Assembly: GCA_937901925.1 (NCBI GenBank)
Contig: CALGTS010000015.1
Location: forward strand, 67,239-131,238
Direction of reading: 5' to 3'
DNA from: an uncultured Bacteroidales bacterium
GTDB taxonomy: Bacteria; Bacteroidota; Bacteroidia; Bacteroidales; WCHB1-69
DNA: 64,000 nucleotides
A program made the translations under genes and the position numbers. Below the pieces are notes generated by a model. That model ran no database searches, had not been told where the DNA came from, and saw only the letters and a program-made list of their open reading frames with translations. This document shows, piece by piece, positions 10,517-44,513 of this stretch; the stretch's first letter is position 1, and the number at the start of each line of letters is the position of its first letter.

Positions 10517-12106
<1,590 letters not shown>

Positions 12107-25085: not shown

Positions 25086-25095
25086 TATTTGTACT

Positions 25096-25860: not shown

Positions 25861-25886
25861 CTCATTAATAATCAAAAGAAAAAATA

Positions 25887-26498: not shown

Positions 26499-26504
26499 AG
26501 AATT

Positions 26505-27863: not shown

Positions 27864-27900
27864 AAAAGTGAAATCGAGAAAATCTTTTAAGAAAAAAAAC

Positions 27901-27908
27901 TATCTTTG
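27901..27908 (+). promoter_or_regulatory. -7 promoter box (TATCTTTG)
   Basis: TAnnTTTG about 45 nt upstream of the 27954 ATG. Confidence 0.5.
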
Positions 27909-27953
27909 CAAACTTTATTTTCAGTACAATATTAAATCATAAAAATCATAAAA

Positions 27954-29150: not shown

Positions 29151-29170
29151 GCTAACTTATTCAATAAATA

Positions 29171-29207
29171 AAAAGAGAATATATCACACGGTATATTCTC
29201 TTTTTTA
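29171..29207 (+). terminator. rho-independent terminator
   Basis: AAAAGAGAATATA...TATATTCTCTTTT hairpin plus a T-run. Confidence 0.8.
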
Positions 29208-29503
29208 TTAGCATCTTCACAACGAAAATGCGCTTCTCTCAAAACAATAAAAAAAGTTATTGTATCTGATAAAAATCCAAAGTAATATATTTCAATTACA
29301 GTATTTATAAGGCTGAGCCTTCATTTTTCCAATTCCAACCCGTCATCATCAGTGTAGAATATCACTATCTATAATGAATAAAATAGTACGCAGAATATTT
29401 AATCAAAAGAGATAATAGCCAACAGCTATCTCGTTTGTTTATGCTATTTCTGCACAACTTAACAAAAATGTATCCATGCTATCCACCAACTTACGGATCA
29501 TGC

Positions 29504-30400
29504 TTAAATCAGTAACCGGGTTTGCTTTCGGTATTCAGCATACTCGGGTTTGTTTGCTAACTGACGGTTTTCCATTAATGGAATACTGATACACATAAAC
29601 AACGCGGTCATAGCAATAGGACCTAAAATATACCAATCTATCCCATTAACGGCTGCATAGATAATCCAAATACCCCACCAAAACTGAATTTCACCGAAAT
29701 AGTTAGGATGACGACCATTCTTCCACAGCCCAACATTGCAGCACTTACCTGGATGAGCAGCACGAAAATTGTGAATCTGCTTATCTGCAATCAGTTGTAT
29801 AGTAGCAGAAGCCAAACAAACAACACAGCCAAACACCATTAGTACGTACCCAAGCCAACCCATCGTTTCGCTTCGCACAACACACTCACATTCATACAGT
29901 TGTAGCCCAGGAAGCATAGCCACAAAGACCACCAACGTGGGAACCATATTCAAACCGAAAAAATTAATCAAATGAAATAGCACAGGGTGCAGACTGCGAT
30001 ATTTGGTATAGCGCCAATCCTCATGAGCTATACCTTTGAAAGTGATTGCCCAATTGCGTGTCAATCTCCATCCCCAGTAGCACGATGCTACTAATAATAG
30101 TATCACAGGCAACGACCATACACTTGTATATATCCCCCATAACAAGAAAACAATAGGAGGAAACACACTCCAATATGGGTCATATACCGATACATTTTCA
30201 TATACCAATCCCCAAGCCCAAACTACTATCGTAGCTATCACATCTGCCACAAATAATGCCCAAAGAGGGTGTAAAATGGGCAACGAAAGAAAACCACTTC
30301 CTGTCAATTCTCTGAAAACTAACCAGCCAATCAAACTCGCAATTAGATAGATAGCTGTAATCAATATAATACTGCACCCTTTAGAATAGAACCGTTTCAT
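29504..30400 (-). CDS. DUF1295 / steroid-5-alpha-reductase-like integral membrane protein (intact copy)
   Basis: 298 aa, polytopic. The C-terminal motif NGRHPNYFGEIQFWWGIW is typical of the DUF1295/ICMT-like fold. Confidence 0.75.
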   Translation of the reverse strand: MKRFYSKGCSIILITAIYLIASLIGWLVFRELTGSGFLSLPILHPLWALFVADVIATIVVWAWGLVYENVSVYDPYWSVFPPIVFLLWGIYTSVWSLPVILLLVASCYWGWRLTRNWAITFKGIAHEDWRYTKYRSLHPVLFHLINFFGLNMVPTLVVFVAMLPGLQLYECECVVRSETMGWLGYVLMVFGCVVCLASATIQLIADKQIHNFRAAHPGKCCNVGLWKNGRHPNYFGEIQFWWGIWIIYAAVNGIDWYILGPIAMTALFMCISIPLMENRQLANKPEYAEYRKQTRLLI

Positions 30401-30582
30401 ATTAGTTATTAAACTGCAAAAGTACTACATTTTGTCGAAATATTAATTTACATGCCGAAAAATTATATTTTGTCATAATGAAAATAGTTAGTGTCCGAAA
30501 AATATATCCTTTTGCCCATAGTTTTAGGTTTGGGAGAAACAAAAATAACATAGAGGACTAAATCCGCAGAATGGAATCAGCC
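30042..30582. repeat. direct repeat copy A (541 nt), left boundary of the island
   Basis: Aligned by eye to 39564-40105. Substitutions occur only in about the first 135 nt and last 25 nt. About 380 central nt are identical. Confidence 0.95.
30417..30424 (-). promoter_or_regulatory. -7 promoter box (TACTTTTG on minus strand) of the DUF1295 gene
   Basis: The reverse complement of CAAAAGTA lies about 17 nt upstream of the ATG. It is duplicated at 39939-39946 inside the second repeat copy. Confidence 0.5.
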
Positions 30583-30641
30583 TTTTTTTTATTTTGGCAA
30601 AAAAAAGTTTTACTGGACACTAATAATTTAAAATAATTTCG

Positions 30642-30649
30642 TATTTTTG
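30642..30649 (+). promoter_or_regulatory. -7 promoter box P1 (TATTTTTG) at the island left end
   Basis: TAnnTTTG match in a very AT-rich stretch, about 130 nt upstream of the long hairpin. Confidence 0.4.
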
Positions 30650-30775
30650 CCAACATGTTCCATATTGGGCACCGTAAATGTATTTTTAACTTAAAAAATT
30701 GTAATATAGGAAATTAGAGATTAAAGAAACGAATTAAAAAAAACATATTAAAAGGCGTTTTCGCTTTTCTTTGGA

Positions 30776-30881
30776 TGTGGAAATCTGGACAATTTCCTCT
30801 ATGCTACACAAGAAAAGAGAAACGCTCACGATTGTTCGTGAGCTTTCTTGTTTGTAGCATAGGCAGTCCAGAGCCTCCACA
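30776..30881 (+). ncRNA. 106-nt long imperfect hairpin (candidate structured RNA or DNA hairpin element)
   Basis: Paired by hand: TGTGGA/TCCACA, TCTGGAC/GTCCAGA, CTATGCTACA-CAAGAAAG/CTTTCTTG-TTTGTAGCATAG, and CTCACGA-TTGT-TCGTGAG at the apex. Confidence 0.45.
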
Positions 30882-30983
30882 TAAACAATTGAAGTTCACG
30901 ATTTTTTTATGCCCGTTTGTGAAGCCCTAGAAGGGGACGAAAAAGAACCAAAAAAGAACCTAACTGCGTGAGGGAAAGAGAGG

Positions 30984-30991
30984 TACTTTTG
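30984..30991 (+). promoter_or_regulatory. -7 promoter box P2 (TACTTTTG) upstream of the radical SAM gene
   Basis: TAnnTTTG about 40 nt upstream of ATG 31032. Confidence 0.5.
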
Positions 30992-31031
30992 CGGCAAGGA
31001 ACGAGAAAGTATAAATTATAAAGAAAGAAAT

Positions 31032-32852
31032 ATGTTAGTAAGACAATGTAAAAACACGTTTATCCGGTTTATCGGCGAGATGGGGTACATCACCAACCAG
31101 ATGACTCGACACGATAGAACTTACAATGAAACAGGGGCCGATTTCTTGAGAGAGATTAACCGCCAGCCTCAGGAAGTGGACGATATTGTTGCCCGTCTGC
31201 GCAAAGTTTATAACGATAGTGTCTCTACGGAGGAATTGAGAGCGGACTTCATCGAATTTATCAAGGATTTGGACAAGCATCTCTTCCTTGTAGTGGGCGA
31301 AACACCCGAAGAGTTGGATGAAAAAGATTTGGATTTCTCTTACAGCATGGAGAATCCTAAAACTTTAGTGGAGGATTATACACAGGAGACAGATCAGCAA
31401 GTGGATGAAACCACGCAGGATTTCATGCTGGAAGCCACGCAACGTGAACCTCGGCTGAATGGTATACAGTTTGAACTAACCAGCCGCTGTAATGAAAGGT
31501 GCATTCATTGCTACATTCCTAACCCAAAGAAGAATGCGGGTGGCGACATGCCTGTTGAGAAAGTAAAATCATTGATAGATGAGTTCACAGATATGGGTGG
31601 ACTCCACGTGACTCTTTCCGGAGGAGAGGTGTTCTTGCACAGAGACATTATTGCCATAATGCAATATTGTAGAGAGAAAGACATGCAGATTTCCGTTCTG
31701 AGCAATTTGATTGCGTTGAAAGACGAGCTAATCCCTGCCATTAAAGAAGCCAATGTTTCTATTGTGCAAACTTCTCTATACAGTATGGATCCAGATATTC
31801 ACGACTTGATAACTACTGTGAAAGGCTCGCATGTGAAAACCAAGGCTGCCATTGAGAAGTTAGTAGCAGCAGATATTCCCGTGCAGATTTCCTGCCCTAT
31901 AATGAAAGCCAACTACCAAGGTTATGCCGAAGTGCTACAATATGCACAATCGCTACGCTGCAAAGCACAAACTGACTACATTCTGATAGCACAATCAGAT
32001 TTGAATACTACCAATTTAGCAAATCGTCTTTCTTTGGAGGAGACAGGACAATTACTAAAAGATATTATGAAATGGGACAAGGATTACAGAGAGGGTATCC
32101 TGAAACATTCTCCTCTTTCAGAAAAAATTGCTTTTGATCCCGAACAATTCGCTAAACAACCATTATGTGGTGCGGGAGTCAACAGTTGTTGTATTACAGA
32201 AAATGGCGATGTATATCCTTGTGCAGGATGGCAAGCAATGGTGTGCGGCAATGTATATCAGCAGAGTTTGAAGGATATTTGGGAAAATTCTCTGCAAATG
32301 AAGCAGATACGTGCTGTTACACAAGGAGATTTCCCTAAATGTTTGAAATGCAATGCCCGAGATTACTGCGCTATGTGCTTGGTGCGCAATTACAATGAGA
32401 GCGGTGGTAACATGTTCAAAATCAACCAGCACTTTTGTGATGTAGCTTTTATAAACAAAAAAGTGGTGGAAGAATATGCAGCATCCCATGCCGAGGATTA
32501 TGCTATGCACTATGAATGGTTAATATGCGATATCTACCAATGTAGTCGATATGGGGTGGACGCAGCCGATGCGGACAGATATAGAAGACTTGTAACAAAT
32601 TATTTCAAATTAGTTCAAGCACAAAATAATCCCTGTCAATATAATGTACGTGAATATAAAAAGGATTATCAAAGTATTTTGGAAGAGATAAACAATCATT
32701 TGAAGTATGCAATTGATAATTGCAGATGCAGAAAAACGGAAAGTTATCAAAAACTAGAAAAACTGAAAACTGATTTCCCTTTGTCCAATATTATAGCCAT
32801 AAACTATATGATAGATTCAATGCGGAACATTTTAAAAGAAGATAAACAATAA
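31032..32852 (+). CDS. radical SAM/SPASM peptide-modifying enzyme with fused N-terminal PqqD-like (RRE) domain and unassigned C-terminal extension
   Basis: 606 aa. N-terminus ..YNETGADFLREINRQPQEVDDIVARL..ELRADFIEFIKDL is PqqD-like. rSAM cluster CNERCIHCY with GGEVFL. SPASM cysteines CGAGVNSCCITENGDVYPCAG and CLKCNARDYCAMC...FCD. About 127 extra C-terminal residues. Confidence 0.88.
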   Translation: MLVRQCKNTFIRFIGEMGYITNQMTRHDRTYNETGADFLREINRQPQEVDDIVARLRKVYNDSVSTEELRADFIEFIKDLDKHLFLVVGETPEELDEKDLDFSYSMENPKTLVEDYTQETDQQVDETTQDFMLEATQREPRLNGIQFELTSRCNERCIHCYIPNPKKNAGGDMPVEKVKSLIDEFTDMGGLHVTLSGGEVFLHRDIIAIMQYCREKDMQISVLSNLIALKDELIPAIKEANVSIVQTSLYSMDPDIHDLITTVKGSHVKTKAAIEKLVAADIPVQISCPIMKANYQGYAEVLQYAQSLRCKAQTDYILIAQSDLNTTNLANRLSLEETGQLLKDIMKWDKDYREGILKHSPLSEKIAFDPEQFAKQPLCGAGVNSCCITENGDVYPCAGWQAMVCGNVYQQSLKDIWENSLQMKQIRAVTQGDFPKCLKCNARDYCAMCLVRNYNESGGNMFKINQHFCDVAFINKKVVEEYAASHAEDYAMHYEWLICDIYQCSRYGVDAADADRYRRLVTNYFKLVQAQNNPCQYNVREYKKDYQSILEEINNHLKYAIDNCRCRKTESYQKLEKLKTDFPLSNIIAINYMIDSMRNILKEDKQ

Positions 32853-32912
32853 GATTATGGAGTATTGCCGAAAATCCAATAAAGAGTAGGCTTTAATTAA
32901 AACTCAAAAAAA

Positions 32913-33053
32913 ATGAAAAATTACAAAAAGGTAAAAATGGTGGCAAAAAATGCCCCGAGTGGTTCGTACGCAGCAGGCTGCCGAGTGGACACAAGTAAAG
33001 GCAGAAAAAACATGACTGGCAGATACTGCGAAGAATGCCAGATGGCTTCGTAG
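32913..33053 (+). CDS. 46-aa Cys-containing small ORF, candidate RiPP precursor peptide
   Basis: Hand translation gives MKNYKKVKMVAKNAPSGSYAAGCRVDTSKGRKNMTGRYCEECQMAS. It starts 61 nt after the rSAM stop on the same strand and is followed by a stem-loop. It is not in the ORF track because it is under 60 aa. Confidence 0.5.
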   Translation: MKNYKKVKMVAKNAPSGSYAAGCRVDTSKGRKNMTGRYCEECQMAS

Positions 33054-33063
33054 AATTCATATT

Positions 33064-33091
33064 CCTCCCTCATTATTGTTGATGAGGGAGG
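33064..33091 (+). terminator. 10-bp GC-rich stem-loop after the small ORF (attenuator or partial terminator)
   Basis: CCTCCCTCAT-TATTGTTG-ATGAGGGAGG. There is no clear T-run after it. Confidence 0.4.
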
Positions 33092-33162
33092 GATTAATCA
33101 AAGCAGCGGAAGCCGAAAAGCTATAATAGAGTAGGAGAAACTTAAAAATAAATTAAAAACAC

Positions 33163-33372
33163 ATGGGTATTACTCTTTATGACACCCCTAAGGTTTATAA
33201 AATTAAAGATGAGAAACTTTGTCCGATTTTCCCTGCAACTATTGTGGTGAAAGGTGAATGCGAATTACAGACTGTTTACAATGATCAAACTCCCGAAATC
33301 AAGAGGTGGTTATTTGTTGACGACAAAGTTATGTATTCAGAAGAATTTATTCTGAAAAATTATACATTGTAA
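33163..33372 (+). CDS. hypothetical protein (69 aa)
   Basis: ORF-track entry, co-directional with the rSAM gene and followed by a strong terminator. No recognised motif. Confidence 0.5.
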   Translation: MGITLYDTPKVYKIKDEKLCPIFPATIVVKGECELQTVYNDQTPEIKRWLFVDDKVMYSEEFILKNYTL

Positions 33373-33385
33373 TATTTTGGAACTA

Positions 33386-33420
33386 AGACAGCCTACAGTT
33401 TTTTTTGTGGGCTGTCTTTT
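33386..33420 (+). terminator. rho-independent terminator
   Basis: AGACAGCCTAC-AGTTTTTTTT-GTGGGCTGTCT followed by TTT. Confidence 0.75.
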
Positions 33421-33437
33421 AATCTAAAGGAATAGTC

Positions 33438-33839
33438 ATGGATATAAACAATGAAAAATATCAAATAGGAGATATAGTGCAGAAACCAACAGGCGGCCCA
33501 GAAATGATAATCAGAGAAATAAATAGTGATGGGCGAATGATATGCGATTGGTTTGATGAAAATGATAGTTTATGTAACTCAGAAGTGACGGAGGCTGAGT
33601 TAAGATACCATCCAACAGAAACGTTTTCATTTTCTGTCGGCGATTTTGTGTCAACTAACCTTAATAGTGTTTTGAAAATGCAGGTTGTTGAAGTGAATGA
33701 TTCTATGGTTAGATGTGAATGGTACAACAAAAAGGGGGTGTTACAATCATCATACTTCAAAATAGAAGAGTTGGAGAAAGGGAGAATGTATGATGGAAAA
33801 GAAAAGTTTCTTCACGTAAATTATGTACCTTATAAGTAA
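33438..33839 (+). CDS. protein with two tandem YodC/DUF2158-like modules
   Basis: 133 aa. GDIVQKPTGGPEMIIREI..RMICDWFDEND and GDFVSTNLNSVLKMQVVEV..MVRCEWYNKKG both resemble the E. coli YodC pattern (V..K.GGP.M.V..... .C.W). Confidence 0.65.
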   Translation: MDINNEKYQIGDIVQKPTGGPEMIIREINSDGRMICDWFDENDSLCNSEVTEAELRYHPTETFSFSVGDFVSTNLNSVLKMQVVEVNDSMVRCEWYNKKGVLQSSYFKIEELEKGRMYDGKEKFLHVNYVPYK

Positions 33840-33845
33840 ATCAAC

Positions 33846-34118
33846 ATGGGCCTCCTTTCCGACCTCCTATTTCTGAATTTTATCAAACGCCGGGCCAAGC
33901 GCAAAGGGTGCGGCATCGGCGACATGGTGATGCTGAAAACCGGTAGTCCCGTTATGATGGTGGTGGATGTTGATCTTGAGGAGGCCGAATGCGAGTGGTT
34001 CTCCGAAAAGGATCAAAGGACACACCGCAAGTCGTTCATGTTTGAAATGCTCGTGAATGTAAACAATATTAATTCGAAAATAGATCAAAAATTTATAAAT
34101 CAAAAATCACTGAAATGA
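33846..34118 (+). CDS. YodC/DUF2158-like small protein
   Basis: 90 aa. GDMVMLKTGSPVMMVVDVDLEEAECEWFSEKDQ shows the same module. Its stop overlaps the next ATG (ATGA). Confidence 0.6.
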   Translation: MGLLSDLLFLNFIKRRAKRKGCGIGDMVMLKTGSPVMMVVDVDLEEAECEWFSEKDQRTHRKSFMFEMLVNVNNINSKIDQKFINQKSLK

Positions 34119-35293
34119 AAAAATCTTTGTTATTTACTACAATTTTGTTGCCTTTGTGCCTCATTGTGGCCAGCTGCGAAAACAACGCCGAAGTGAAAGT
34201 CACCACATACGAGCCAGCAAACATCACACCTAAGAGCGCAGAGTGTGGCGGTGATGTGGTGCTTAACGGGAACATCCCTTTAAGTGAATTGGGTGTCTGC
34301 TGGAGTACAAAACGCAATCCAACCCCGAATGACAATAAGATGTTTACAAGAGACTACCAGTATCCTTTCTCCTGTAAAATCACTCATCTCACGCCCGGTA
34401 CCAAATATTATGTGCGTGCATACGTTATTCGGGGACATCATGAGGCATACTATGGAAAGGAGATGTCCTTCACCACTCCTATCAACTCGAATAGCGGTGT
34501 GATAGAGGGCAGTCTCAGCGGCAAATTCTCTGTAGCAATGGGCGAACAGGTTTATTTCTCAAAAGGGAATCTGCAATTTCATCCGGTCCAACGAAAATGG
34601 CGTTTCGCCGAGCATCAATGGGACATCATTGGTGCAGAAAATGCTAATGTATCAGAAAACTACAATGGTTGGTTGGATCTGATGGGTTGGGCCACCAGCG
34701 GTTACAATAACTGCAACCCCTGGATGACCAGTTCTTCATCATTAGACTATGGAGAACTTTATGTTGATATTGCAGGAACCAATTACGATTGGGGTGTTTA
34801 TAATGCCATAAGCAATGGCGGAGGCCAGAAGGGGTTGTGGCGCACGCTGGAGTATTCAGAGCTGGTATATCTTTTCGAAACTCGTCATACTTCTTCGGGA
34901 AGCCGCTTTGCTAAAGCCACGGTGAACGGCATCTATGGTGTCATACTCCTTCCTGATGATTGGAACAACTCTTACTATTCGTTAAGCCACGTAAACGACA
35001 ACTCTATCAACGGAGAATACACTTACAATGTAATCAGCTTGTCGGATTGGAATAACAAGCTGGAGAGCCATGGAGCCGTATTTTTGCCTGCCGGTGGTGA
35101 TCGCATAGGCACTTCCATCCATTATTACAGCAATGGCATCCCCACAGCCGCCCAAGGTAATTACTGGACATCTTCCACACATAGCGGTGAACGCGCTTGG
35201 GCTTTATATTTCAGCGACCACTCCTGCTATTGGAACTATCCTGCTTATATCGGTCCCGCCAAGTCGGTCCGGCTAGTCAGGGATGTGGAATAA
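34115..35293 (+). CDS. surface lipoprotein whose C-terminal half resembles the Fibrobacter-succinogenes-paralogous (TIGR02145-like) domain
   Basis: 392 aa. Lipobox LIVASC. N-terminal Ig/FN3-like segment (GVCWSTKRNPT). C-terminal pattern GLWRTLEYSELVYLF..AVFLPAGGDR..YWTSS..AWALYFS..SVRLVRD, recalled from memory as typical of that family. Confidence 0.6.
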   Translation: MKKSLLFTTILLPLCLIVASCENNAEVKVTTYEPANITPKSAECGGDVVLNGNIPLSELGVCWSTKRNPTPNDNKMFTRDYQYPFSCKITHLTPGTKYYVRAYVIRGHHEAYYGKEMSFTTPINSNSGVIEGSLSGKFSVAMGEQVYFSKGNLQFHPVQRKWRFAEHQWDIIGAENANVSENYNGWLDLMGWATSGYNNCNPWMTSSSSLDYGELYVDIAGTNYDWGVYNAISNGGGQKGLWRTLEYSELVYLFETRHTSSGSRFAKATVNGIYGVILLPDDWNNSYYSLSHVNDNSINGEYTYNVISLSDWNNKLESHGAVFLPAGGDRIGTSIHYYSNGIPTAAQGNYWTSSTHSGERAWALYFSDHSCYWNYPAYIGPAKSVRLVRDVE

Positions 35294-35633
35294 CATGATT
35301 TTTCAAAGATTAGTACTAAACAAATATATCACAGTTATGAGTTTTTATTCAGCAAAAACGGGTTTGGAAATACTAGTATGGTCTATGTTGAGCATAGAAA
35401 AAAATCATCGAATGAAATATGAGACAAAGAAAAGAGTCAATGACACGTTAGACATTCTGGAACGCGAGACTTTTTTAGGACCGGATTTTATCGCTGAAAT
35501 ATACAAATTTAGAAGATTGTTCCGCTCTTTGGAGCCTCTTGATACTATACAAGATGAGGATGAATATGAAATGATTAGTGATCAAATTAAGGAGTCCATG
35601 GACAAATGTTTAGCGATCTTGGCATGTTATTAA
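35283..35633 (+). CDS. hypothetical protein (start uncertain; 35337 ATG also possible)
   Basis: 116-aa ORF in the packed operon. Acidic C-terminal half. No motif recognised. Confidence 0.45.
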   Translation: MWNNMIFQRLVLNKYITVMSFYSAKTGLEILVWSMLSIEKNHRMKYETKKRVNDTLDILERETFLGPDFIAEIYKFRRLFRSLEPLDTIQDEDEYEMISDQIKESMDKCLAILACY

Positions 35634-35652
35634 CCAATATAATTGTATAATT

Positions 35653-36117
35653 ATGCAACCCCAAACCTACATCCAGTTATTAGAAATCCTCACCTGTATG
35701 GGAGTGTACAATGCCAGAGTGTATAACTTCAAAGACAATCCTAAAGAGGTGGCCCAGTGTGCCGACGGCCTCAAGGAGATGGCGGAAGACCTGCAATTGC
35801 TTGGCTCCAAAACCTTCAACCCGTCACTGTGGCAAAAGTTCTGCAAAGAGTTGCATGGCGACAAACCTGTAGATATTGCCGCATCGGAACTCCAATCGGA
35901 AGCGTGGCGGCAAATTTTGCAGATACTGCCCCGCATCGCCTCCACAGCAGCCGTGTTGGAGGGAAAATGCCAGGATCCCGAAACGGTGGCCCACATCACT
36001 GCCCGTGAACTCAAACCGCTCCTCAACCAATGCAACGAACTGCTCGATAGCGAGCGCACTGAAATCCGTGGCAAAAGTTTCCTTGAAAGGGTTATGGAGA
36101 AGCTCGGACGAAAATAA
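35653..36117 (+). CDS. hypothetical protein (154 aa, helical)
   Basis: It is the longest ORF here that is co-directional with its neighbours. Antisense ORFs in this stretch are explained by the high GC. Confidence 0.55.
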   Translation: MQPQTYIQLLEILTCMGVYNARVYNFKDNPKEVAQCADGLKEMAEDLQLLGSKTFNPSLWQKFCKELHGDKPVDIAASELQSEAWRQILQILPRIASTAAVLEGKCQDPETVAHITARELKPLLNQCNELLDSERTEIRGKSFLERVMEKLGRK

Positions 36118-36135
36118 AAATACCTTATCGCTATC

Positions 36136-36864
36136 GTGACAGATCACCACACTCATATTGGTCAATTCTACGACATTTACACGTCTCCTTCGGAACTAAT
36201 TCATGTAATGGATTCCGTAGAAGTGGAGCGGTTTGCTTGTTCTTCAACCACTATATGCGAAGGAAATTATGAAAAAGTGTTGTCGGAAATGTCTGAATTG
36301 GTTCGCCTTGCTGTAAATCGTGTGTTACCTGTTCTGTGGATGCTTCCGCAAATGTTGTCGGATGGTGGTTTGCAACGCTTTTTGGATAGTGGTATTCCTT
36401 GGAAGATGTTGAAAATCCATTCTCAACTGAATCCGTTGGCATGGCAATGTGGAAGCAGGCGTTTGCAAAAAGTGGTTCGGTTGTCCAAACAGCTGAATCT
36501 GCCATTGCTGATTCACACAGGAGAAAGTCCAGGTTGCTATCCTTCTTTGTTCGAGCGTGCTATTCGTTACAATCCGTCTGTTACATTCATTTTGGCACAC
36601 GGTCGCCCATTGGACGAAACCATTTCGCTTATGCGAAAATATCCCAATGTTTTGACAGACACCGCTTTTATGCCTGTGAAACATGTCGCAAAACTCTGTC
36701 ATTTCGGTCTCGCTCACCGTATTCTTTGGGGTACAGATGTCCCCATACAACGATATTACAGCCGTAAAGAAGACATCGTAGTTTATTACAAAAAACGTCT
36801 ATGCGAGTTGCGTGATGTTGTCTCAAATGAACATTATGAAACAATCATTTCAAATATCATATAA
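36136..36864 (+). CDS. metal-dependent amidohydrolase (Amidohydro_2/TIM-barrel hydrolase-like)
   Basis: 242 aa with a GTG start. N-terminal DHHTH metal motif, then LLIHTGE, ILAHGRP and ILWGTDVP strand-end motifs. Confidence 0.65.
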   Translation: MTDHHTHIGQFYDIYTSPSELIHVMDSVEVERFACSSTTICEGNYEKVLSEMSELVRLAVNRVLPVLWMLPQMLSDGGLQRFLDSGIPWKMLKIHSQLNPLAWQCGSRRLQKVVRLSKQLNLPLLIHTGESPGCYPSLFERAIRYNPSVTFILAHGRPLDETISLMRKYPNVLTDTAFMPVKHVAKLCHFGLAHRILWGTDVPIQRYYSRKEDIVVYYKKRLCELRDVVSNEHYETIISNII

Positions 36865-36900
36865 AAAAAGTACAAATCGTAAAAATTTCAAATATAATTC

Positions 36901-37134
36901 ATGGACAACACTTTCATCAATGCTATGCTCGCCCTGCATACCCTTGCCGCCAAGGAGACTTTCGGATCGGACGCTGTGGTGGCACTGAACGCCGGAGAGC
37001 CAGGTGTGTACGAGAACAACCCTACCATTATCGAATATGAGCAAAAGGGCTACAAATTCTGTGATGCCAACATGTTCGGAGAAGGGTTGGAAAGAATGGA
37101 AACGCTCACTTTCAGGAAAATGAACAAAGGTTGA
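36901..37134 (+). CDS. hypothetical protein (77 aa)
   Basis: ORF-track entry, co-directional and closely spaced. Confidence 0.45.
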   Translation: MDNTFINAMLALHTLAAKETFGSDAVVALNAGEPGVYENNPTIIEYEQKGYKFCDANMFGEGLERMETLTFRKMNKG

Positions 37135-37161
37135 TAAGGTTAGCGTAAAATATCCAATAGA

Positions 37162-38094
37162 ATGTCAGAAAAGAAATGGAAGATAGACAGCCGGGTGCCG
37201 CACAAATATCGTGGCGGTCGTAGAGGGAAAGGTTCGGAGTTCCCGCGCCACGGCATGAACGAATACGAGGGTGAACGGCTCTCCATGAGCAAACACAGAC
37301 TTTCCAAACACAAAACGATGAGCTACAACAAAGGAAACGGTTGGGCATCGTTGCATGAAAAACATATAGAAGGACTCCTTAACAAGTACCTCAACAAGCC
37401 ATTCGACGAGATGCTGAGCGAATTTTACGCCAAAACCAAATCGCTGCGCCAAAGCGGACGACAACGTATGTGGAACACCCCATCCTACTTCTCTCATGAT
37501 GTGGATGGGTTTAAACATCGCCGATATGTGTCATGGGAAGAGAAAAAGTATTATGTCGATGACAACGGCATTCTCCGTCTAAAGGATAACCATGCCGACA
37601 GCACCCCGAAGACAAAATTGACCCGCAAACAGAAAGCCTACAACCGTCAAGTTCCGGTGCCCACATTCGGCTTGAAAACTGACCAGTTCGAACTTTTAAG
37701 ACAAAAGTACGACACCGCCGATCTTTTTGTGGGAGAATATTACGCTATAGTGGATGGAGAAGTTTGCAAAGTGCCGATTTACACCTCGCCAAAGACAGAA
37801 AATGATTACGAATTGTCTGACAGAATTGCCGTGGATGGTTTTAGTTTTGATGCAAAATTCAACCATGTTTTTTGGAACTACACTTATAAAAAAGCGAACA
37901 GCTACAAAACCGAAGTCCGTGAAAAATTGGAGGCTTTGAAAAAAGAAAACAATAATGAAAATGAGGACGATGTGGCGCGCATGGAGCGTCGGATCTGTTC
38001 CATGAAGGATTATTGGACAATGCACGGATGCATGGCTCTGGAGTTTTATACAAAGAAAATAGACTATATACGATCAAACAAAAATAGAAGTTAA
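37162..38094 (+). CDS. hypothetical protein (310 aa, basic N-terminus)
   Basis: Long ORF with an Arg/Lys-rich N-terminal 60 aa. No domain recognised. Confidence 0.6.
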   Translation: MSEKKWKIDSRVPHKYRGGRRGKGSEFPRHGMNEYEGERLSMSKHRLSKHKTMSYNKGNGWASLHEKHIEGLLNKYLNKPFDEMLSEFYAKTKSLRQSGRQRMWNTPSYFSHDVDGFKHRRYVSWEEKKYYVDDNGILRLKDNHADSTPKTKLTRKQKAYNRQVPVPTFGLKTDQFELLRQKYDTADLFVGEYYAIVDGEVCKVPIYTSPKTENDYELSDRIAVDGFSFDAKFNHVFWNYTYKKANSYKTEVREKLEALKKENNNENEDDVARMERRICSMKDYWTMHGCMALEFYTKKIDYIRSNKNRS

Positions 38095-38111
38095 CAAAAA
38101 CCCTATATACT

Positions 38112-38390
38112 ATGTACCGTCAATTCACCGCCTCCCGCATTTCCGAATCCAACGTGCTGTTCCCGCCCACCATTATCTTCAATGATGAGGGCATCACCAT
38201 CAAAACACCGGCGCTGCTGCACCACAACACCGACTTCATCCCATACGAGGCGGTGTCGAGTGTGATGATCCACACCCCGCTCGCTGGCTTCTCCACCATT
38301 ACCTTCTACGCTTACGGCCGCGAAATCCGCGTTCACGGCTTCCTCCAACGCGAGGTGCGCGAGATGAAACAGTTGGTGGAAGAGAGGTAG
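38112..38390 (+). CDS. hypothetical protein (92 aa; possibly a bacterial PH-like fold)
   Basis: The pattern ..PPTIIFNDEGITIKTP....IPYEAVSSVMIHTPLAGFSTITFYAYGREIRVHGF weakly resembles bPH domains. Low certainty. Confidence 0.45.
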   Translation: MYRQFTASRISESNVLFPPTIIFNDEGITIKTPALLHHNTDFIPYEAVSSVMIHTPLAGFSTITFYAYGREIRVHGFLQREVREMKQLVEER

Positions 38391-38440
38391 AATGTAACAA
38401 CCTTTTGTAGTTAGATATTTACATTTTTATATACAGTTGA

Positions 38441-38476
38441 TTTAAAAAGGAGGGCTTTCACCCCCTCCTTTTTAAA
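38441..38476. terminator. bidirectional terminator hairpin
   Basis: TTTAAAAAGGAGGG-CTTTCACC-CCCTCCTTTTTAAA. The A-run and T-run flank a GC stem between convergent genes. Confidence 0.75.
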
Positions 38477-38608
38477 TCAAGTTTTTTGCTTCATTCTCAA
38501 GGAAAAACTTTGTTTCTCCCAAGGCATATATTCGGTAGCTCAACTCCATTGCCAATTCATCACTCAAACGCTCTATCTTTTCGGCAATGCCATTGCGCCA
38601 CTTTTCGT

Positions 38609-38893
38609 CTATCCTTGCCTTTTTGCCGTTGTAAAACATTTAATGGCAGTTTTATACGTGCAGCCCAGACGAACGGCAAAAAGTAACATATCAGGGTCTA
38701 TAACTTTGTAAATCAGCCTCAGTTCCTTATCTGTCAGCCCCGCTAACTCTTGGTACAGCCGTTTTTCAATTTCTATCAGCCCCAAGTTTAAGTGGTCAAC
38801 AAAGTTGTCTATGGCATGCCCTAATTGGTCGGATTTTCCTTCGGCAAGTTTATACTCCTCTGTTTTGGTCGTAATTAATTCACTCATAATCAA
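38609..38893 (-). CDS. hypothetical protein (94 aa), possibly the N-terminal part of a frameshifted gene
   Basis: ORF-track entry. A 55-codon ORF (38639-38472, minus strand) overlaps its end in another frame. Confidence 0.45.
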   Translation of the reverse strand: MIMSELITTKTEEYKLAEGKSDQLGHAIDNFVDHLNLGLIEIEKRLYQELAGLTDKELRLIYKVIDPDMLLFAVRLGCTYKTAIKCFTTAKRQG

Positions 38894-39276
38894 TCTTTAT
38901 ATACTATTGTATTTATAATTGTTGAGGTTAAATTTCATTTCCCATCTTCCTCCTACAACATATGCAATTTGGCAGGATTTTGGTTGCTTAAGTGGTTTTT
39001 CGTTCACCTTGCTTATGTTGCCAACCTGCACTTGTGCGTTATGCGAACATTACACATGTACAAGGGTGTAACCATGCGGAGATATAACACAAATGGAGAT
39101 GTAACCGATGCGGAAACCAAAACAAGCGTTAAAGGTGCGGACATTGCACCACTTTTTACAGTATTATATATAACTATACAATCTCATACATCATAGTTGT
39201 TAAAAAAAATGGTGCAAAACAAATATAATTATCAGTAAAATAATAAATTACATACCTACTGTGTTTGAAAAAATTG

Positions 39277-39284
39277 TACCTTTG
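39277..39284 (+). promoter_or_regulatory. -7 promoter box (TACCTTTG) in the non-coding right end of the island
   Basis: TAnnTTTG match with no convincing ORF downstream. Confidence 0.3.
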
Positions 39285-39556
39285 CCGCGTAAAAAAAGCA
39301 CGTTCTTTGTCAAGGTATATATGGGCTATATATAGCGACAGTTGTGGCATTTGCAACTCAAATTGGTGTAACAGCTATAATGCGCCAATGTACTAACCCC
39401 ATATATTTAAAAGGAAAACCAGCCAAGTGTAGGTTGGTATTCGGCTATGTGAGGTTTAAGGTGGCTCACCCGATTTTACGGGATTCGCGCCAAAATTCTA
39501 TAATAATTCACAAATGCCGAAATTGGGAATCGGTCAAGTGTTTGTGCGCTAAAAGA

Positions 39557-39922
39557 TTACACGGTAATTACCCAATTGCGTGTCAATCGCCATCCCCAGT
39601 ACCACGATGCTACTAATAATAGTATCACAGGCAACGACCATACATTTGTATATATCCCCCATAACAAGAAAGCAATAGGAGGAAACACACTCCAATAGGG
39701 GTCATATACCGATACATTTTCATATACCAATCCCCAAGCCCAAACTACTATCGTAGCTATCACATCTGCCACAAATAATGCCCAAAGAGGGTGTAAAATG
39801 GGCAACGAAAGAAAACCACTTCCTGTCAATTCTCTGAAAACTAACCAGCCAATCAAACTCGCAATTAGATAGATAGCTGTAATCAATATAATACTGCACC
39901 CTTTAGAATAGAACCGTTTCAT
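39557..39922 (-). pseudogene. truncated duplicate of the DUF1295 gene (first ~118 codons plus 3 foreign codons)
   Basis: The 121-aa ORF is nearly identical to the N-terminus of 29504-30400 (differences V/A, S/N, C/W, A/V). It ends ...RNWVITV* at the repeat boundary. Confidence 0.9.
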
Positions 39923-40105
39923 ATTAGTTATTAAACTGCAAAAGTACTACATTTTGTCGAAATATTAATTTACATGCCGAAAAATTATATTTTGTCATAA
40001 TGAAAATAGTTAGTGTCCGAAAAATATATCCTTTTGCCCATAGTTTTAGGTTTGGGAGAAACAAAAATAACATAGAGGACTGAATCCTGCAGAATGGAAT
40101 CAGCC
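39564..40105. repeat. direct repeat copy B (542 nt), right boundary of the island
   Basis: See copy A. One extra T (AATCCTGCAG versus AATCCGCAG). Confidence 0.95.
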
Positions 40106-40187
40106 CTAAATTATTCATGCAAAAAAGTTTTATCGAATAAATAAAAGAGAGAAACAAGTCCGTATGAAGAGAGGTTTTCCGCACAAA

Positions 40188-40844
40188 CTATAAATCGGTA
40201 TGTTTCACATTAATACCTTCTACTAAATAGACCAAATCTTCAGCAATGTTGGTGCAGCAATCACCGATACGCTCCAACATATACAGCACACGACTCAAAT
40301 TGAGATAGGAAGGCATAATGTCTGCTTTTACATCATTTTGAAAGAGTTGGCGGTGAATTTCGTGGTAATAATCATCCACTTGGTCATCCGTAGCGATAAT
40401 ATTGCGGGCAATATAATCATTTTCCGTTTCGAAAGCGTAAATAATATTTTCGTTCATTTTCTGCACCATTGAGAAGAGACTCCGAATTTTATGCTGATAA
40501 GGTTTCCACACTTCATCAGAATTGGCAATAATAGGAAGCCTTTTGTTGATACTATTGAGCAGATCACCCATTCTTTCCATATCAATAATGATGTTGAGCA
40601 GAGCGATAATGCGGCGCAAATCGCGGGCACGCGGCGTAAGACGGACAATATCGTTTACGATGCTCTCGCGAAATTGAATCTCATATTGATCCAATTGTTT
40701 CTCATTGGCTTTTATCTTTGCGGTCGTTTCTAAGTTAATAGGACCATCAATCTGTTTTTCGAGTAGCGAAAATTGCTCCGTCAGCAATTTAGCCATTGCT
40801 GCGAAATCCTCATTCATTTTCTTTAAAGATTCTTCTCTTATCAT
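40188..40844 (-). CDS. phoU: phosphate signalling complex protein PhoU
   Basis: 218 aa. Two PhoU repeats with ERIGD/ERMGD motifs. Downstream of pstB. Confidence 0.93.
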   Translation of the reverse strand: MIREESLKKMNEDFAAMAKLLTEQFSLLEKQIDGPINLETTAKIKANEKQLDQYEIQFRESIVNDIVRLTPRARDLRRIIALLNIIIDMERMGDLLNSINKRLPIIANSDEVWKPYQHKIRSLFSMVQKMNENIIYAFETENDYIARNIIATDDQVDDYYHEIHRQLFQNDVKADIMPSYLNLSRVLYMLERIGDCCTNIAEDLVYLVEGINVKHTDL

Positions 40845-40871
40845 AACTGTAACATTAAAAATTCAAAATTA

Positions 40872-41642
40872 TTAACCCACTCTTCCGATGAGGTAATCTT
40901 CCGTTCGTTTGTCTTTTGGATTGGTGAACATAATGCTTGTATTCTCATATTCAACTAATTCTCCTAAATACATAAACATTGAGTTGTCTGAAATTCGGGA
41001 TGCTTGTGACATATTATGGGTAACAATCATAATAGTTACTTGTTTTTTCAGTTTCACCAAAAGTTCCTCTATTTTGAGAGTTGCGATTGGGTCGAGTGCG
41101 GAGGTAGGCTCATCCAGCAGCAGCAAGTCTGGTTTTAAGGCAAGTGCGCGAGCAATGCAAAGACGTTGCTGTTGTCCTCCCGAGAGGAAAGATCCCTTTT
41201 TGTGCAGGGTACTGCTCACCTCATCCCAAAGACCTACATTACGCAAATTCTCCTCTACGATTTCATCGCGTTTTTCCTTGCTCAATTTTATCCCTTTCAA
41301 CAGAAAACCGGCAATCACATTGTCGTAAATGCTCATTGTAGAGAAAGGATTAGGACGTTGGAATACCATTCCTGCTTTGGAGCGCACATCGATAGGATTC
41401 ATCTTCAATACATCCTTTTCTTCGAGCAGAATCTCTCCGGAAATACTGATACCATCGTGCAGTTCGTGCATTCTGTTGATAGCGCGTAGCAAAGTACTCT
41501 TACCGCAACCTGACGGTCCCATAATGGCAGTGATAGAGTTGCGCGCAATATCAGCGGAAACATCTTTAACAGCGTATTTATCTGCTGCATAAGAGATGCT
41601 TAAATCTTTTATTTGTAAAATAGGATTTGTTATCGGTTCCAT
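40872..41642 (-). CDS. pstB: phosphate ABC transporter ATP-binding protein
   Basis: Contains [24 protein letters not shown] and LLLDEPTSALDP. Confidence 0.96.
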   Translation of the reverse strand: MEPITNPILQIKDLSISYAADKYAVKDVSADIARNSITAIMGPSGCGKSTLLRAINRMHELHDGISISGEILLEEKDVLKMNPIDVRSKAGMVFQRPNPFSTMSIYDNVIAGFLLKGIKLSKEKRDEIVEENLRNVGLWDEVSSTLHKKGSFLSGGQQQRLCIARALALKPDLLLLDEPTSALDPIATLKIEELLVKLKKQVTIMIVTHNMSQASRISDNSMFMYLGELVEYENTSIMFTNPKDKRTEDYLIGRVG

Positions 41643-42490
41643 CGTTTTGTAATTATTTTAGCTGTGATATTTAAGGTTAACACTATTAACAAGAGGAAAA
41701 GTGAGGCGCTCCAGATTAAGCTCTGTAGGTTCGGGTCGTTGTAAAACTCCCAAATCAACAGTGACACGGAGCTGTTGGGTTGCGTCAAGTTCCATTGGAT
41801 GTAAGCGCTGCCCAAGATGGTAAGCATCAGCGGTGCGGTTTCGCCCATCACACGTGAAATAGCCAGAAGAATTCCTGTAAAGATTCCGGAAAATCCTGAC
41901 GGTAACCAAACCTTGAAAATCATTGAAGTGTAAGAAGCTCCGAGCGCCAACGCCGACTCTTTCAAACTCATCGGCAACAAATTTAACGTCTCTTCAGTAG
42001 AGCGAATGATGAGTGGCAACATCATAATGGCGAGTGCACCAGCACCAGCAATGGCGGAATAACTACCCATCGGAACAACGATCCAAAGGTAAGCAATGAT
42101 ACCAATTACAATAGAGGGCGTGCCTTGCAGCAACTCGCTAAGAAAACGAATAATGCTGGCAAAACGACGTTCTCTGTTTTCTGAAACATAGATACCGCAA
42201 AAAATTCCTATCGGGATTGCCACAATCGCCGCCAACGCTACTATTATCAACATTCCCACAATGCCGTTGGCGATACCTCCTGGAATTGGCTCTCCAATAT
42301 TTTTTGCTAACATAGCTTCCAATGTGGTAGGAGAGATTTCCGTGAAAAATGCCCAATTTATCTGCCCAATTCCATTGATGAATACTTTTCCTAAGATTGC
42401 AAACAGCGGAATAGAAGTGAGAAGAGAAAAGAATATAATGAGTGCTAAAAAAGCCTTATCCTGAAATAGTCTTATGCTGTTTCTTTTCAT
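41630..42490 (-). CDS. pstA: phosphate ABC transporter permease PstA
   Basis: 286 aa, 6 TM helices, EAA-loop-like SLKESALALGAS. Confidence 0.9.
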   Translation of the reverse strand: MKRNSIRLFQDKAFLALIIFFSLLTSIPLFAILGKVFINGIGQINWAFFTEISPTTLEAMLAKNIGEPIPGGIANGIVGMLIIVALAAIVAIPIGIFCGIYVSENRERRFASIIRFLSELLQGTPSIVIGIIAYLWIVVPMGSYSAIAGAGALAIMMLPLIIRSTEETLNLLPMSLKESALALGASYTSMIFKVWLPSGFSGIFTGILLAISRVMGETAPLMLTILGSAYIQWNLTQPNSSVSLLIWEFYNDPNLQSLIWSASLFLLLIVLTLNITAKIITKRWNR

Positions 42491-43344
42491 TATCTTTTTG
42501 ATTTTCTGATTAAAAATCTTCCTATCATATTAGTAATCATAGTGATGAAGAATAGTGCCAGCGCAATGGCAATCAGTACGGAGAGTCGAGAGTCTGACGC
42601 TTCACCAAATTGGTTAGCGATTATACTAGCCATCGTGTTACCAGTATCACCCAAACCGCGAGGAATATTATTGGTATTACCAATTAACATTGTTACCGCC
42701 ATGGTTTCTCCCAACGCACGGCCTAGCGCCAAGATGTATGAGGAGATGATTCCCGATGATACGGAAGGGAAAATCACTCGCGTTACCACTTCGCTGCGTG
42801 TTGCCCCTAAGCCGTAAGCACCCTCTTTCAGGTCGGTAGGAACCATCTTGATAAACTGGCTGCTCAACGACGCGGCGTACGGAATAATCATTATTGCTAA
42901 AATGATGGCTGCGGTAAAAACACCGAATCCCTGATCCGAAATGCCCAAGTCTGCAATAATCGGTCTTAACACGTAGAATCCCCATAAACCATAAACAATA
43001 GAAGGAATTCCCGCTAACAAATCCACCATCGTTTCCAATACGGAAGCTATTTTCTTGCCTTTGAAATATTCTCCAATGAAAAGAGCAATGGAAAGGGAGA
43101 ATGGAATGCAGATCAGAAGTGCCAACAGTGAGGAGAGCAATGTGCCCGCAATGAACGCCAGCGCACCATATTGCTCAGAACCTTCTGTGTAATCCCATTC
43201 TGCTGAGAAAAGGAAGTTGAAAAATCCGAACTGCTTGAAGGCAGGTAAAGAGCCTGTAATCAAAGAGTAAACCATTCCGATTCCTACCACTAATAGCAGC
43301 AGCGCAGTCGCAAATAGCCCAATTTTAAAAATCTTATCTTTCAT
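42490..43344 (-). CDS. pstC: phosphate ABC transporter permease PstC
   Basis: 284 aa, 6 TM helices, DLKEGAYGLGATRSEV loop. Confidence 0.9.
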   Translation of the reverse strand: MKDKIFKIGLFATALLLLVVGIGMVYSLITGSLPAFKQFGFFNFLFSAEWDYTEGSEQYGALAFIAGTLLSSLLALLICIPFSLSIALFIGEYFKGKKIASVLETMVDLLAGIPSIVYGLWGFYVLRPIIADLGISDQGFGVFTAAIILAIMIIPYAASLSSQFIKMVPTDLKEGAYGLGATRSEVVTRVIFPSVSSGIISSYILALGRALGETMAVTMLIGNTNNIPRGLGDTGNTMASIIANQFGEASDSRLSVLIAIALALFFITMITNMIGRFLIRKSKR

Positions 43345-43379
43345 CTTTTCTTCTTAATACTCTTTTCCAGCTTAGCCAA

Positions 43380-44435: not shown

Positions 44436-44487
44436 TTTTTCTTTTTTTTAGTTGTGCAAAAAAAGCTTTATTAAATTACATTAAAGT

Positions 44488-44513
44488 TGTCTTTCTGTTA
44501 CGTTTTTGTTACA
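44488..44513 (-). promoter_or_regulatory. Pho-box-like tandem heptamers upstream of pstS
   Basis: Minus strand reads TGTAACA-AAAA-CGTAACA-GAAA-GACAAC (7+4+7+4 spacing). Confidence 0.55.

Follow-up and report, generated by a model that had tools for sequence, protein, structure and literature searches.

We propose that the nine-gene block at positions 33438-38390 of the window (the whole 64,000-nucleotide stretch of the uncultured Bacteroidales contig analyzed here) is the distal part of a ~7.5-kb operon for a peptide that is synthesized on ribosomes and modified after translation (RiPP), matured by a radical S-adenosylmethionine (rSAM) enzyme, with two of the nine genes belonging to the core of the system and seven being swappable cargo. 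We give this composite model a probability of roughly 0.6. Transcription would begin in a promoter region near 30.98 kb and proceed through the maturase gene, the gene for a precursor of 46 amino acids (aa), a small open reading frame (ORF) termed o69 and the nine genes, to end at a terminator at 38437-38480. The maturase would cross-link the Cys-containing core of the precursor, gene 6 would then cut the modified peptide, trimming its leader or follower as PurAH/BotAH do in bottromycin biosynthesis, and gene 9 would bind the modified peptide as an adaptor or protector. The seven other genes would be cassettes that slot into the intergenic joints of the operon and are exchanged among loci by recombination, presumably as co-transcribed passengers dispensable for peptide synthesis. 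As a best guess, we see in them cargo related to conflict, with self-protection or phage-related functions, and we hold any specific role for one of them at much lower confidence.

The maturase gene (31032-32852, + strand) encodes a protein of 606 aa in which Pfam recognizes a PqqD domain, or RiPP recognition element (RRE), at residues 31-83 (1.7e-7), a Radical_SAM domain (3.3e-24) and a SPASM domain (1.4e-11). An alignment of 12 sequences shows no variation in the cysteines of the CxxxCxxC motif (C153/C157/C160) or in those of the SPASM domain, and to judge from its sequence the protein has all the features of a peptide-modifying rSAM/SPASM enzyme. It scores below the NCBIfam cut-offs for known maturases (131 bits vs 500 for AhbD, 99.7 vs 850 for AlbA). 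The precursor gene (32914-33054, + strand) encodes the 46-aa peptide MKNYKKVKMVAKNAPSGSYAAGCRVDTSKGRKNMTGRYCEECQMAS. More than 60 homologous precursors have a conserved MKKYxKxxxxAKNxPxGSYAAGC followed by a variable Cys-containing core that ends in CxxCER, and no model in Pfam or NCBIfam matches these precursors. The preliminary description of this DNA had treated the nine genes as a discrete, stand-alone block, a view that does not hold; it separated off the maturase and missed the precursor just upstream.

With a profile of the maturase, at least 522 loci were found in gut and rumen Bacteroidales metagenomes; 80 of these were inspected, and 94 rSAM loci were analyzed overall. Many of the contigs are short, and ORFs at the other loci were called with ATG starts only. 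The canonical cassette consists of one or more precursors of the type just described, then the rSAM gene and then a homolog of gene 6. Such a homolog is present in 66 of the 94 rSAM loci, and hardly any contig that extends 1 kb or more downstream lacks it; it usually begins 5-40 nucleotides (nt) after the rSAM gene, and its product is 28-57% identical to that of gene 6. Homologs of gene 9 occur in 26 loci, in nine of them directly after the hydrolase gene, and these nine come from at least four groups. Searching with the gene 9 protein recovered more diverged loci in which a kinase, the rSAM enzyme, the precursor, o69, gene 7, gene 6 and gene 9 follow one another in this order, all without genes 1-5 and 8. 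Genes 1-5 and 8 are found in close relatives only, in many combinations, and a search with the 310-aa product of gene 8 led to ten uncultured rumen or gut Bacteroidales genomes that hold the block in varying forms. On this comparison, the hydrolase is co-inherited with the maturase, and the nine genes divide into a core of genes 6 and 9, which we take as ancestral partners of the maturase, and the facultative genes 1-5, 7 and 8. A random mosaic of cargo, which the preliminary description had named as the outcome that would undo its proposal, describes seven of the nine genes; it does not describe the other two, for the hydrolase and the PH-like protein, whose partnership with the maturase is conserved.

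Gene 6 (36136-36864, with a GTG start) encodes 242 aa and matches Pfam Amidohydro_2 with 35.4 bits against a cut-off of 26.4; a match to TatD is weak. The DxHxH motif (D3, H5, H7) is present in 65 of 65 homologs, and K93, H95, H127, H155, D175 and D201 are 100% conserved among 66 sequences. Amidohydrolases with a binuclear metal center use a ligand set of HxH on strand 1, Lys on strand 4, His on strand 5, His on strand 6 and Asp on strand 8, and gene 6 appears to carry this set, on a putative assignment of its residues to the strands. By analogy, its most likely role would be that of a peptidase acting on the modified precursor: PurAH/BotAH is a binuclear zinc amidohydrolase of the bottromycin pathway, and PurAH removes the follower peptide (PMC10885120).

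Gene 9 (38112-38390) encodes 92 aa and forms the conserved 3' end of the operon. Its AlphaFold model, with a predicted local distance difference test (pLDDT) score of 87.6, contains seven strands and a C-terminal helix, and Foldseek matches it to PH domains, bacterial ones included, with a probability of 1.0 and template modeling (TM) scores of 0.6-0.72. No Pfam bPH family matches the protein at E ≤ 0.1, and it has no membrane segment; its family comprises 61 clusters and is limited to a few Bacteroidales lineages. Peptide binding is common among PH and PTB folds. Because of this, and because the hydrolase itself carries no recognition domain, the small, soluble product of gene 9 most likely serves as an adaptor or protector that binds the modified peptide.

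The remaining genes behave differently, as the comparison of whole operons illustrates. The tail of the operon is found, at 85-98% identity, joined also to a second head, in which the rSAM enzyme is ~52% identical and the precursors belong to an unrelated family (MKKYQKVQRLASSG…). These precursors are encoded by one to three tandem genes of 39-40 aa (e.g. MKKYQKVQRLASSGTANFANCHGDEQTQSYCGSKLNYKAF) upstream of the rSAM gene, and were found at L004, L006, L007, L009, L010 and L014. Gene 8 also occurs in the absence of an rSAM gene (L001, L008, L013), and it is truncated in L010 and L025. When the same partner loci are compared, synonymous divergence (dS) amounts to 0.3-0.9 in genes 3, 8 and 9 but to 0.02-0.08 in genes 4 and 5; gene 5 shows a dS of 0.04-0.08 to loci whose neighboring genes have a dS of 0.3-0.8. 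Together, the pattern of presence and absence, the tail shared by two heads, the tails that lack an rSAM gene, the truncation of gene 8 and the mosaic dS show that cassettes have been shuffled by recombination between conserved anchors.

The block itself consists of nine co-directional ORFs, all on the + strand. The preliminary description gave the coordinates, common direction and spacing correctly and counted ten ORFs, while its own list of products also named nine. From gene 1 to gene 9, the successive intergenic distances are 6, -4, -11, 19, 18, 36, 27 and 17 nt; the ATGA stop/start overlap reported at 34115 is indeed there (34115-34118, at the junction of genes 2 and 3), and the -11 overlap of the 116-aa gene 4 hinges on the choice between two candidate ATG starts. 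Because the ratio of nonsynonymous to synonymous divergence (dN/dS), calculated pairwise against orthologs at other loci, is 0.02-0.45 for genes 2-9, the ORFs of the block are genuine genes. The GC content of the block, 0.44, is the maximum of the window at the 2-kb scale, so that its description as the GC-richest core stands, if narrowly, at that scale; the pst operon reaches 0.43, and the single genes, from 1 to 9, have values of 0.35, 0.44, 0.46, 0.33, 0.51, 0.42, 0.49, 0.44 and 0.56, an unevenness that speaks for facultative cassettes. Gene 9, with the last of these values, has a GC content at third codon positions (GC3) of 0.80 in a window with an overall GC content of 0.37, and genes 2, 5 and 7 have a GC3 of 0.56-0.62. 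A foreign origin could account for the high GC3 of these four genes, and so could GC-biased conversion at a hot spot of recombination.

Several features suggest that the block is transcribed together with the maturase. A non-coding leader (30676-31001, + strand) is conserved with 71-81% DNA identity at the same position in L002 and L004-L010, and Bacteroides-type -7 boxes (TAnnTTTG) occur on the + strand at 30642 and 30984; this leader with its boxes is the probable promoter region. A scan for TAnnTTTG found no further box after 30984 until 35079. The two hairpins that the preliminary description regarded as good terminators on either side of the block both fold strongly: the upstream one, followed by a T-run (33385-33419, + strand), has a 14-bp stem (-22.2 kcal/mol, z = -6.8), and the bidirectional end terminator (38437-38480, + strand) has a perfect stem of 18 bp (-25.7 kcal/mol, z = -7.1). 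Each folds better than all of its 200 shuffles. A scan with a terminator consensus lists only 38437-38480 and not 33385-33419, and the block does not form a discrete unit bounded by terminators. A third, attenuator-like hairpin follows the precursor gene (33061-33094, + strand; -23.9 kcal/mol, z = -5.4). Because only 18 nt separate the upstream hairpin from gene 1, and because no -7 box lies between 30984 and 35079, the block probably has no promoter of its own. We infer a single transcription unit from ~30.98 kb to ~38.48 kb, in which the internal hairpins would act as attenuators.

Some observations weigh against this composite model. Transcription could truly terminate at the two hairpins 33061-33094 and 33385-33419. 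Most loci with the second head have no hydrolase and carry a gene for a 132-aa protein in its slot, and the hydrolase is therefore not indispensable to every operon with this tail. Gene 9 is 95-98% identical in L001 and L008, both of which are short tails without an rSAM gene, which suggests that its role is not strictly tied to the maturase. A search of gene 6 against solved structures gave no detectable sequence match. Finally, genes 2, 5 and 7-9 are under purifying selection and keep a constant order across a dozen loci, which exceeds what pure hitch-hiking predicts.

Between the precursor gene and the block lies o69 (33163-33372, + strand), a 69-aa ORF that accompanies operons of this family repeatedly: homologs with 34-96% identity occur in L019-L021 and L024-L026, and a 67-aa member that clusters with them occurs in L034. 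Overall, o69 recurs in eight loci. Both o69 and the precursor gene are preceded by a DUF805b RNA motif (RF02914). The first copy (32857-32892, + strand; 35.8 bits vs a gathering score of 35.6) ends 21 nt before the ATG of the precursor, and the second (33103-33137, + strand; 44.7 bits) lies before o69. The motif stands 21-26 nt before the start codons of those precursor genes of the family that were checked, and of o69. Besides the window, it was seen at L002, L004-L007, L009, L014, L034, L040-L042, L047 and L048, and it precedes o69-type and tandem-DUF2158 genes as well. It looks like the 5' leader of the small, probably highly expressed ORFs of the operon.

The maturase exists in two forms, of 606 aa and of ~485 aa, and no domain matches the ~120 additional C-terminal residues of the window's protein; the region concerned is 32300-32852. 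L026 (at 11479-11534) lacks the part of the maturase gene that corresponds to 32558-32724 of the window. The second, ~52%-identical rSAM type, as in L007 and L014, is shorter and followed by a separate gene for 93 aa. In many loci, the region upstream of the rSAM gene contains a Ser/Thr kinase of ~500 aa (19 loci, including L004, L007, L009, L010, L014, L019-L021, L023 and L026), often together with a divergently encoded 191-aa protein (18 loci). The kinase, which may be a regulator, is not present on the island in the window.

The products of the facultative genes give few functional clues. Genes 1 (33438-33839, 133 aa) and 2 (33846-34118, 90 aa) match DUF2158 (PF09926) above its gathering score of 22.3, with 38.3 bits (1.1e-9) and 24.3 bits, respectively. 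The domain is in tandem in gene 1, where Pfam scores the first repeat only and PHROG 3261 matches two stretches; gene 2 has a conserved N-terminus that is amphipathic and basic. Two papers on DUF2158 give no function for it. A close ortholog of gene 1 is found only in L026 (97%), the other tandem DUF2158 proteins in this slot being 24-29% identical, and gene 2 is found in most loci of the close subgroup. Gene 3 (34115-35293, 392 aa) encodes a lipoprotein with a signal peptide and the lipobox MKKSLLFTTILLPLCLIVAS-C21 (LIVAS-C), the only hydrophobic N-terminus of the block; it has an Ig/FN3-like N-terminal domain and, at its C-terminus, a weak, sub-threshold DUF1566/Lcl_C-like match. A sensor domain that gene 3 seemed to have in common with the upstream Ser/Thr kinases is an artifact of single-linkage clustering, and BLASTP finds no such relationship. 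Sequence searches of solved structures with genes 1 and 3 gave nothing usable. Apart from the lipoprotein, the block encodes no membrane protein, and no transporter was found in it.

Genes 4, 5 and 7 matched no family. Gene 4 (35283-35633, 116 aa) travels with gene 3. Gene 5 (35653-36117, 154 aa) is helical and belongs to a lineage-restricted family with 14 clusters among 5.8 billion proteins. Gene 7 (36901-37134, 77 aa) recurs in three clades and occurs in L019 at 54% and in L102 at 49% identity. Gene 8 (37162-38094, 310 aa) has a net charge of +16, a basic, disordered N-terminus and a C-terminal half that is confidently folded into a domain. Foldseek found nothing below E = 0.35 in the PDB, and the one structural match of gene 8 is an uncharacterized protein of a crAss-like phage (E = 5e-6). 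A profile search of 1.84 billion representatives gave 75 matches, none of them annotated; distant homologs are located in phage-like contigs, and one copy, 75% identical, has an IetA-like ATPase on one side and a type III restriction-modification system on the other. Because it has relatives in phages and in a defense island, the 310-aa protein is the clearest case of conflict-related cargo. One of the distant homologs (~27-30% identity; L017, 10001-14496, a phage-like contig) lies three genes upstream of a gene of the adenylosuccinate-synthase family, which we take to be reminiscent of phage PurZ. The preliminary description fares well on the proteins themselves: the double and single YodC/DUF2158 proteins, the lipoprotein, the Amidohydro_2-like hydrolase, the strongly basic N-terminus of the 310-aa protein and the PH-like nature of the 92-aa protein all agree with the results given above.

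The block sits on a 9.5-kb insertion that is carried by only some strains of the species. Contigs of the same species were retrieved by looking up the adjacent PhoU protein, and in three of them (L106-L108), whose flanks are 98.7-99.1% identical to the window, PhoU lies directly beside an intact DUF1295 gene with a single copy of a repeat that is duplicated in the window. In these empty sites, the sequences corresponding to 25000-30612 and 39564-45000 abut and share one segment of ~550 nt, and the island-specific DNA (30613-39563, 8951 bp) is missing. Because the PhoU-DUF1295 site is uninterrupted in contigs of the same species, the earlier suspicion that the block lies on foreign DNA is borne out. 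The two direct repeats of ~550 nt in the window are ~98.5% identical and are spaced by 9522 nt; each comprises the 5' end of DUF1295 and the DNA upstream of it, with the promoter region. In the left copy (30049-30583), this 5' end belongs to the intact DUF1295 gene (29504-30400, - strand), and the right copy (39571-40105) holds a truncated, 121-aa DUF1295 fragment (39557-39922, - strand) next to the native PhoU side. Three further contigs of the species (L104, L105, L109) carry a shorter variant of the island at the identical site. The short variant matches 35651-44518 of the window at 98.2% identity and is more diverged at the maturase end; in it, 32981-33842 (o69 and gene 1) is replaced and 34067-35650 (genes 3 and 4) is absent.

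Among the ORFs of at least 50 aa in 30400-39560, none encodes an integrase, transposase, relaxase or tra product, and the flanking genes identified by Pfam are housekeeping genes: DUF1295, a Cys/Met pyridoxal-phosphate (PLP) enzyme, and PhoU with the genes of the Pst transporter. With such flanks and no mobility gene on the island, the block is not an accessory region of a conjugative transposon, the other outcome that the preliminary description had considered. A long target duplication without an integrase fits a Campbell-type single crossover of a circle that bears the target, or a recombinase acting in trans.

Two further observations concern the island. A single gene lies on its minus strand (38472-38893), where it is split by a 1-nt deletion near 38642 into ORFs of 94 aa and 55 aa; it is intact, with 138 aa, in L104 (98% DNA identity) and in L002, and has no Pfam match. 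The split gene is either a pseudogene or the result of a sequencing error. The homology between the islands of the window and of L002 extends 18 nt into the right repeat of the window (39571-39588, ATTGCGTGTCAATC-like), and in L002 (13900-14000), where the island ends, a fragment resembling a tRNA T-arm (GGTTCAAGTCC) comes after this stretch, together with a terminator. The 18-nt stretch common to both may be a shared recombination core. A tRNA as the integration target was rejected: despite the T-arm-like fragment in L002, ARAGORN detects no tRNA at any locus.

The alternative that survives best is that all nine genes are a dedicated set of RiPP accessories (immunity, peptide handling or surface display) in one integrated bacteriocin or signal system, and we consider it unlikely. 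The constant gene order and tight spacing agree with such a set, as does the purifying selection on every gene, and DUF805b leaders precede not only precursors but, elsewhere, also tandem-DUF2158 and o69-type genes. Lipoproteins resembling that of gene 3 are encoded near the divergent loci L041, L024 and L006, and the complete set is kept in L026. This locus, at 92.8% DNA identity, is the only one in which the full gene set of the window recurs; there the set adjoins a kinase and an ATPase, not DUF1295, and its core peptide differs from that of the window, so that the same genes accompany different cores, as they also do across the two unrelated precursor families. The converse holds for L005 and L023, whose core peptides are the same: genes 2-5, 7 and 8 are present in L005 and all absent from L023. 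The loss of genes 1, 3 and 4 from the short variant within the same species and the decay of gene 8 in two loci likewise argue against an integrated set and in favor of facultative cargo.

The cargo of related loci extends beyond the block. Arrays of 1.4-1.8-kb units, with one ATPase gene per unit (AAA_14+DUF4143 or ATPase_2+DUF234), lie 3' of gene 9, and each unit is bounded by a repeated piece of the 3' end of gene 9. We observed such arrays in L003 (4760-9885), where a 204-nt repeat is present four times, the first two copies being identical, and also in L001, L002, L006-L009, L025 and L026; the window has none. The ATPases match PDC-S01 and PDC-S27, candidate defense families of PADLOC (E = 1e-41 to 1e-138). 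In L002 and L008, similar cassettes lie upstream, together with a duplicated 5' leader of the operon. Apart from DUF559 for one of them, Pfam and NCBIfam searches with seven neighboring families from other loci gave no match.

A more speculative idea, which we consider improbable, is that the operon serves as an integrase-free landing pad, in which circular DNAs with copies of the anchors are inserted or swapped at the joints, at the 5' leader and at the 3' end of gene 9, and the seven genes make up a novel reservoir of conflict genes. Such a landing pad fits the ~550-nt duplication that surrounds the island, the 204-nt repeats that bound ATPase cassettes and the cassette-like presence or absence of genes 1, 3-4, 5, 6/F29 and 7-8. 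If the idea is true, the seven genes (for immunity, anti-phage or anti-defense functions) would travel in this way and borrow the expression of a peptide-antibiotic operon.

Somewhat less probable than the integrated accessory set, in our view, is a tail that, with the hydrolase and the PH-fold protein included, is a mobile module unrelated to the peptide and lodged at a recombination hot spot behind the rSAM gene. The loci that consist of the tail only (L001 and L008) would be expected under such a scenario, as would a tail 85-98% identical on two different rSAM heads, the repeated use of the 3' end of gene 9 as the insertion point of ATPase cassettes, and the hypervariable genes downstream of the hydrolase across the family. 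The hydrolase gene, however, is 5-40 nt from the rSAM gene even where the rSAM enzyme is 56-68% and the hydrolase 28-57% identical to those of the window, and because this adjacency persists across diverged enzymes, it points to long co-inheritance and not to recent capture. In addition, no fewer than four separate clades have the PH-fold protein after the hydrolase, and L008 keeps a marker gene of the upstream head and hence looks like a deletion derivative.

We regard as very improbable a self-contained, undescribed system of anti-phage defense or anti-defense made up of the nine genes: they are on inserted DNA, DUF2158 matches the phage family PHROG 3261, relatives of gene 8 occur in phages and one copy of it in a context like that of a defense island, and PDC-S01/PDC-S27 ATPases (E down to 1e-138) directly follow gene 9 in related loci, but none of the nine proteins matches PADLOC-DB 2.0 at E ≤ 0.01, the gene content is not fixed, and, with the hydrolase of the RiPP core set aside, the block lacks nuclease, NTPase and sensor-type domains. 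The preliminary description had offered a defense, anti-defense or interbacterial-competition cassette; given that the block belongs to a RiPP operon, the last of these is a reasonable reading, and the idea of a self-contained defense cassette is weakened by the variable gene set and the absence of PADLOC matches. Its statement that no characterized system has this gene content stands, in that neither PADLOC nor NCBIfam (no described system or family model) matches the proteins of the block. The possibility that the block as a whole derives from a prophage or phage was rejected, as genes 2, 5 and 9 have no close relatives in the 2.9 million viral contigs of IMG/VR, and only gene 8 has distant viral relatives.

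The composite model makes a set of anonymous, hypothetical genes testable. They would belong to a large RiPP family of gut and rumen Bacteroidales, of which we found no description: neither the motif GSYAAGC nor the pairing of an rSAM enzyme with an amidohydrolase in Bacteroidales was found in the literature, whose coverage by our search is incomplete and constitutes no proof of novelty, and neither an amidohydrolase nor a hydrolase is mentioned in a survey of Bacteroidales RiPPs (PMC10352776). The minimal cassette of this family is clear, with a precursor, an rSAM/SPASM enzyme, an amidohydrolase and often a PH-fold protein, and its DUF805b RNA leader is recognizable. The parts that would carry out the peptide chemistry (31032-33054 with genes 6 and 9) can now be separated from the seven passengers, and strains of the same species with an empty site, a short island or a long island provide natural controls. 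The long target duplications without an integrase also hint at a route of insertion.

The nine-gene block by itself is not a new system; by its architecture, as predicted from the encoded domains, the operon belongs to the rSAM/SPASM kind of RiPP operon. It resembles the sactipeptide and ranthipeptide clusters (AlbA/subtilosin, CteB/thermocellin) in the N-terminal PqqD-type domain, CxxxCxxC radical SAM and SPASM domains of its maturase, and in the short adjacent precursor with a conserved leader, a variable Cys core and a hairpin after its gene. Unlike those clusters, it has a maturase below all NCBIfam cut-offs, a precursor without a Pfam or NCBIfam model, and no protease or ABC exporter; its constant partner is instead the amidohydrolase. 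In variable arrays between conserved anchors, the operon family is comparable to defense islands and cassette hot spots, and in related loci PDC-S01/S27 ATPases have accumulated at the two ends of the operon, with duplicated anchor sequence bordering each of them; in contrast to such islands, there is no integrase or attC-like site, the array lies within a biosynthetic operon, and the window is without the ATPase cassettes.

The two core proteins of the block also have known counterparts. Gene 6 shares with PurAH/BotAH that it is an enzyme of the amidohydrolase superfamily with a putative binuclear metal center, encoded in a RiPP cluster; the likeness is functional only; gene 6 is short (242 aa) and belongs to Amidohydro_2 in Pfam, with its weak match to TatD. 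The model of gene 9 superposes on bacterial PH domains (DUF1696 3dcx, 3hsa; 3b77) with TM scores of 0.55-0.66, and differs from them in having no bPH match by sequence and no membrane segment. Mycofactocin and PQQ biosynthesis likewise combine a peptide, an rSAM/SPASM enzyme with PqqD and a dedicated hydrolase, but their peptides are invariant cofactor precursors, whereas here the core peptide is hypervariable between loci; a cofactor reading was rejected on this ground, and a hypervariable core would fit a bacteriocin or a signal better than a cofactor.

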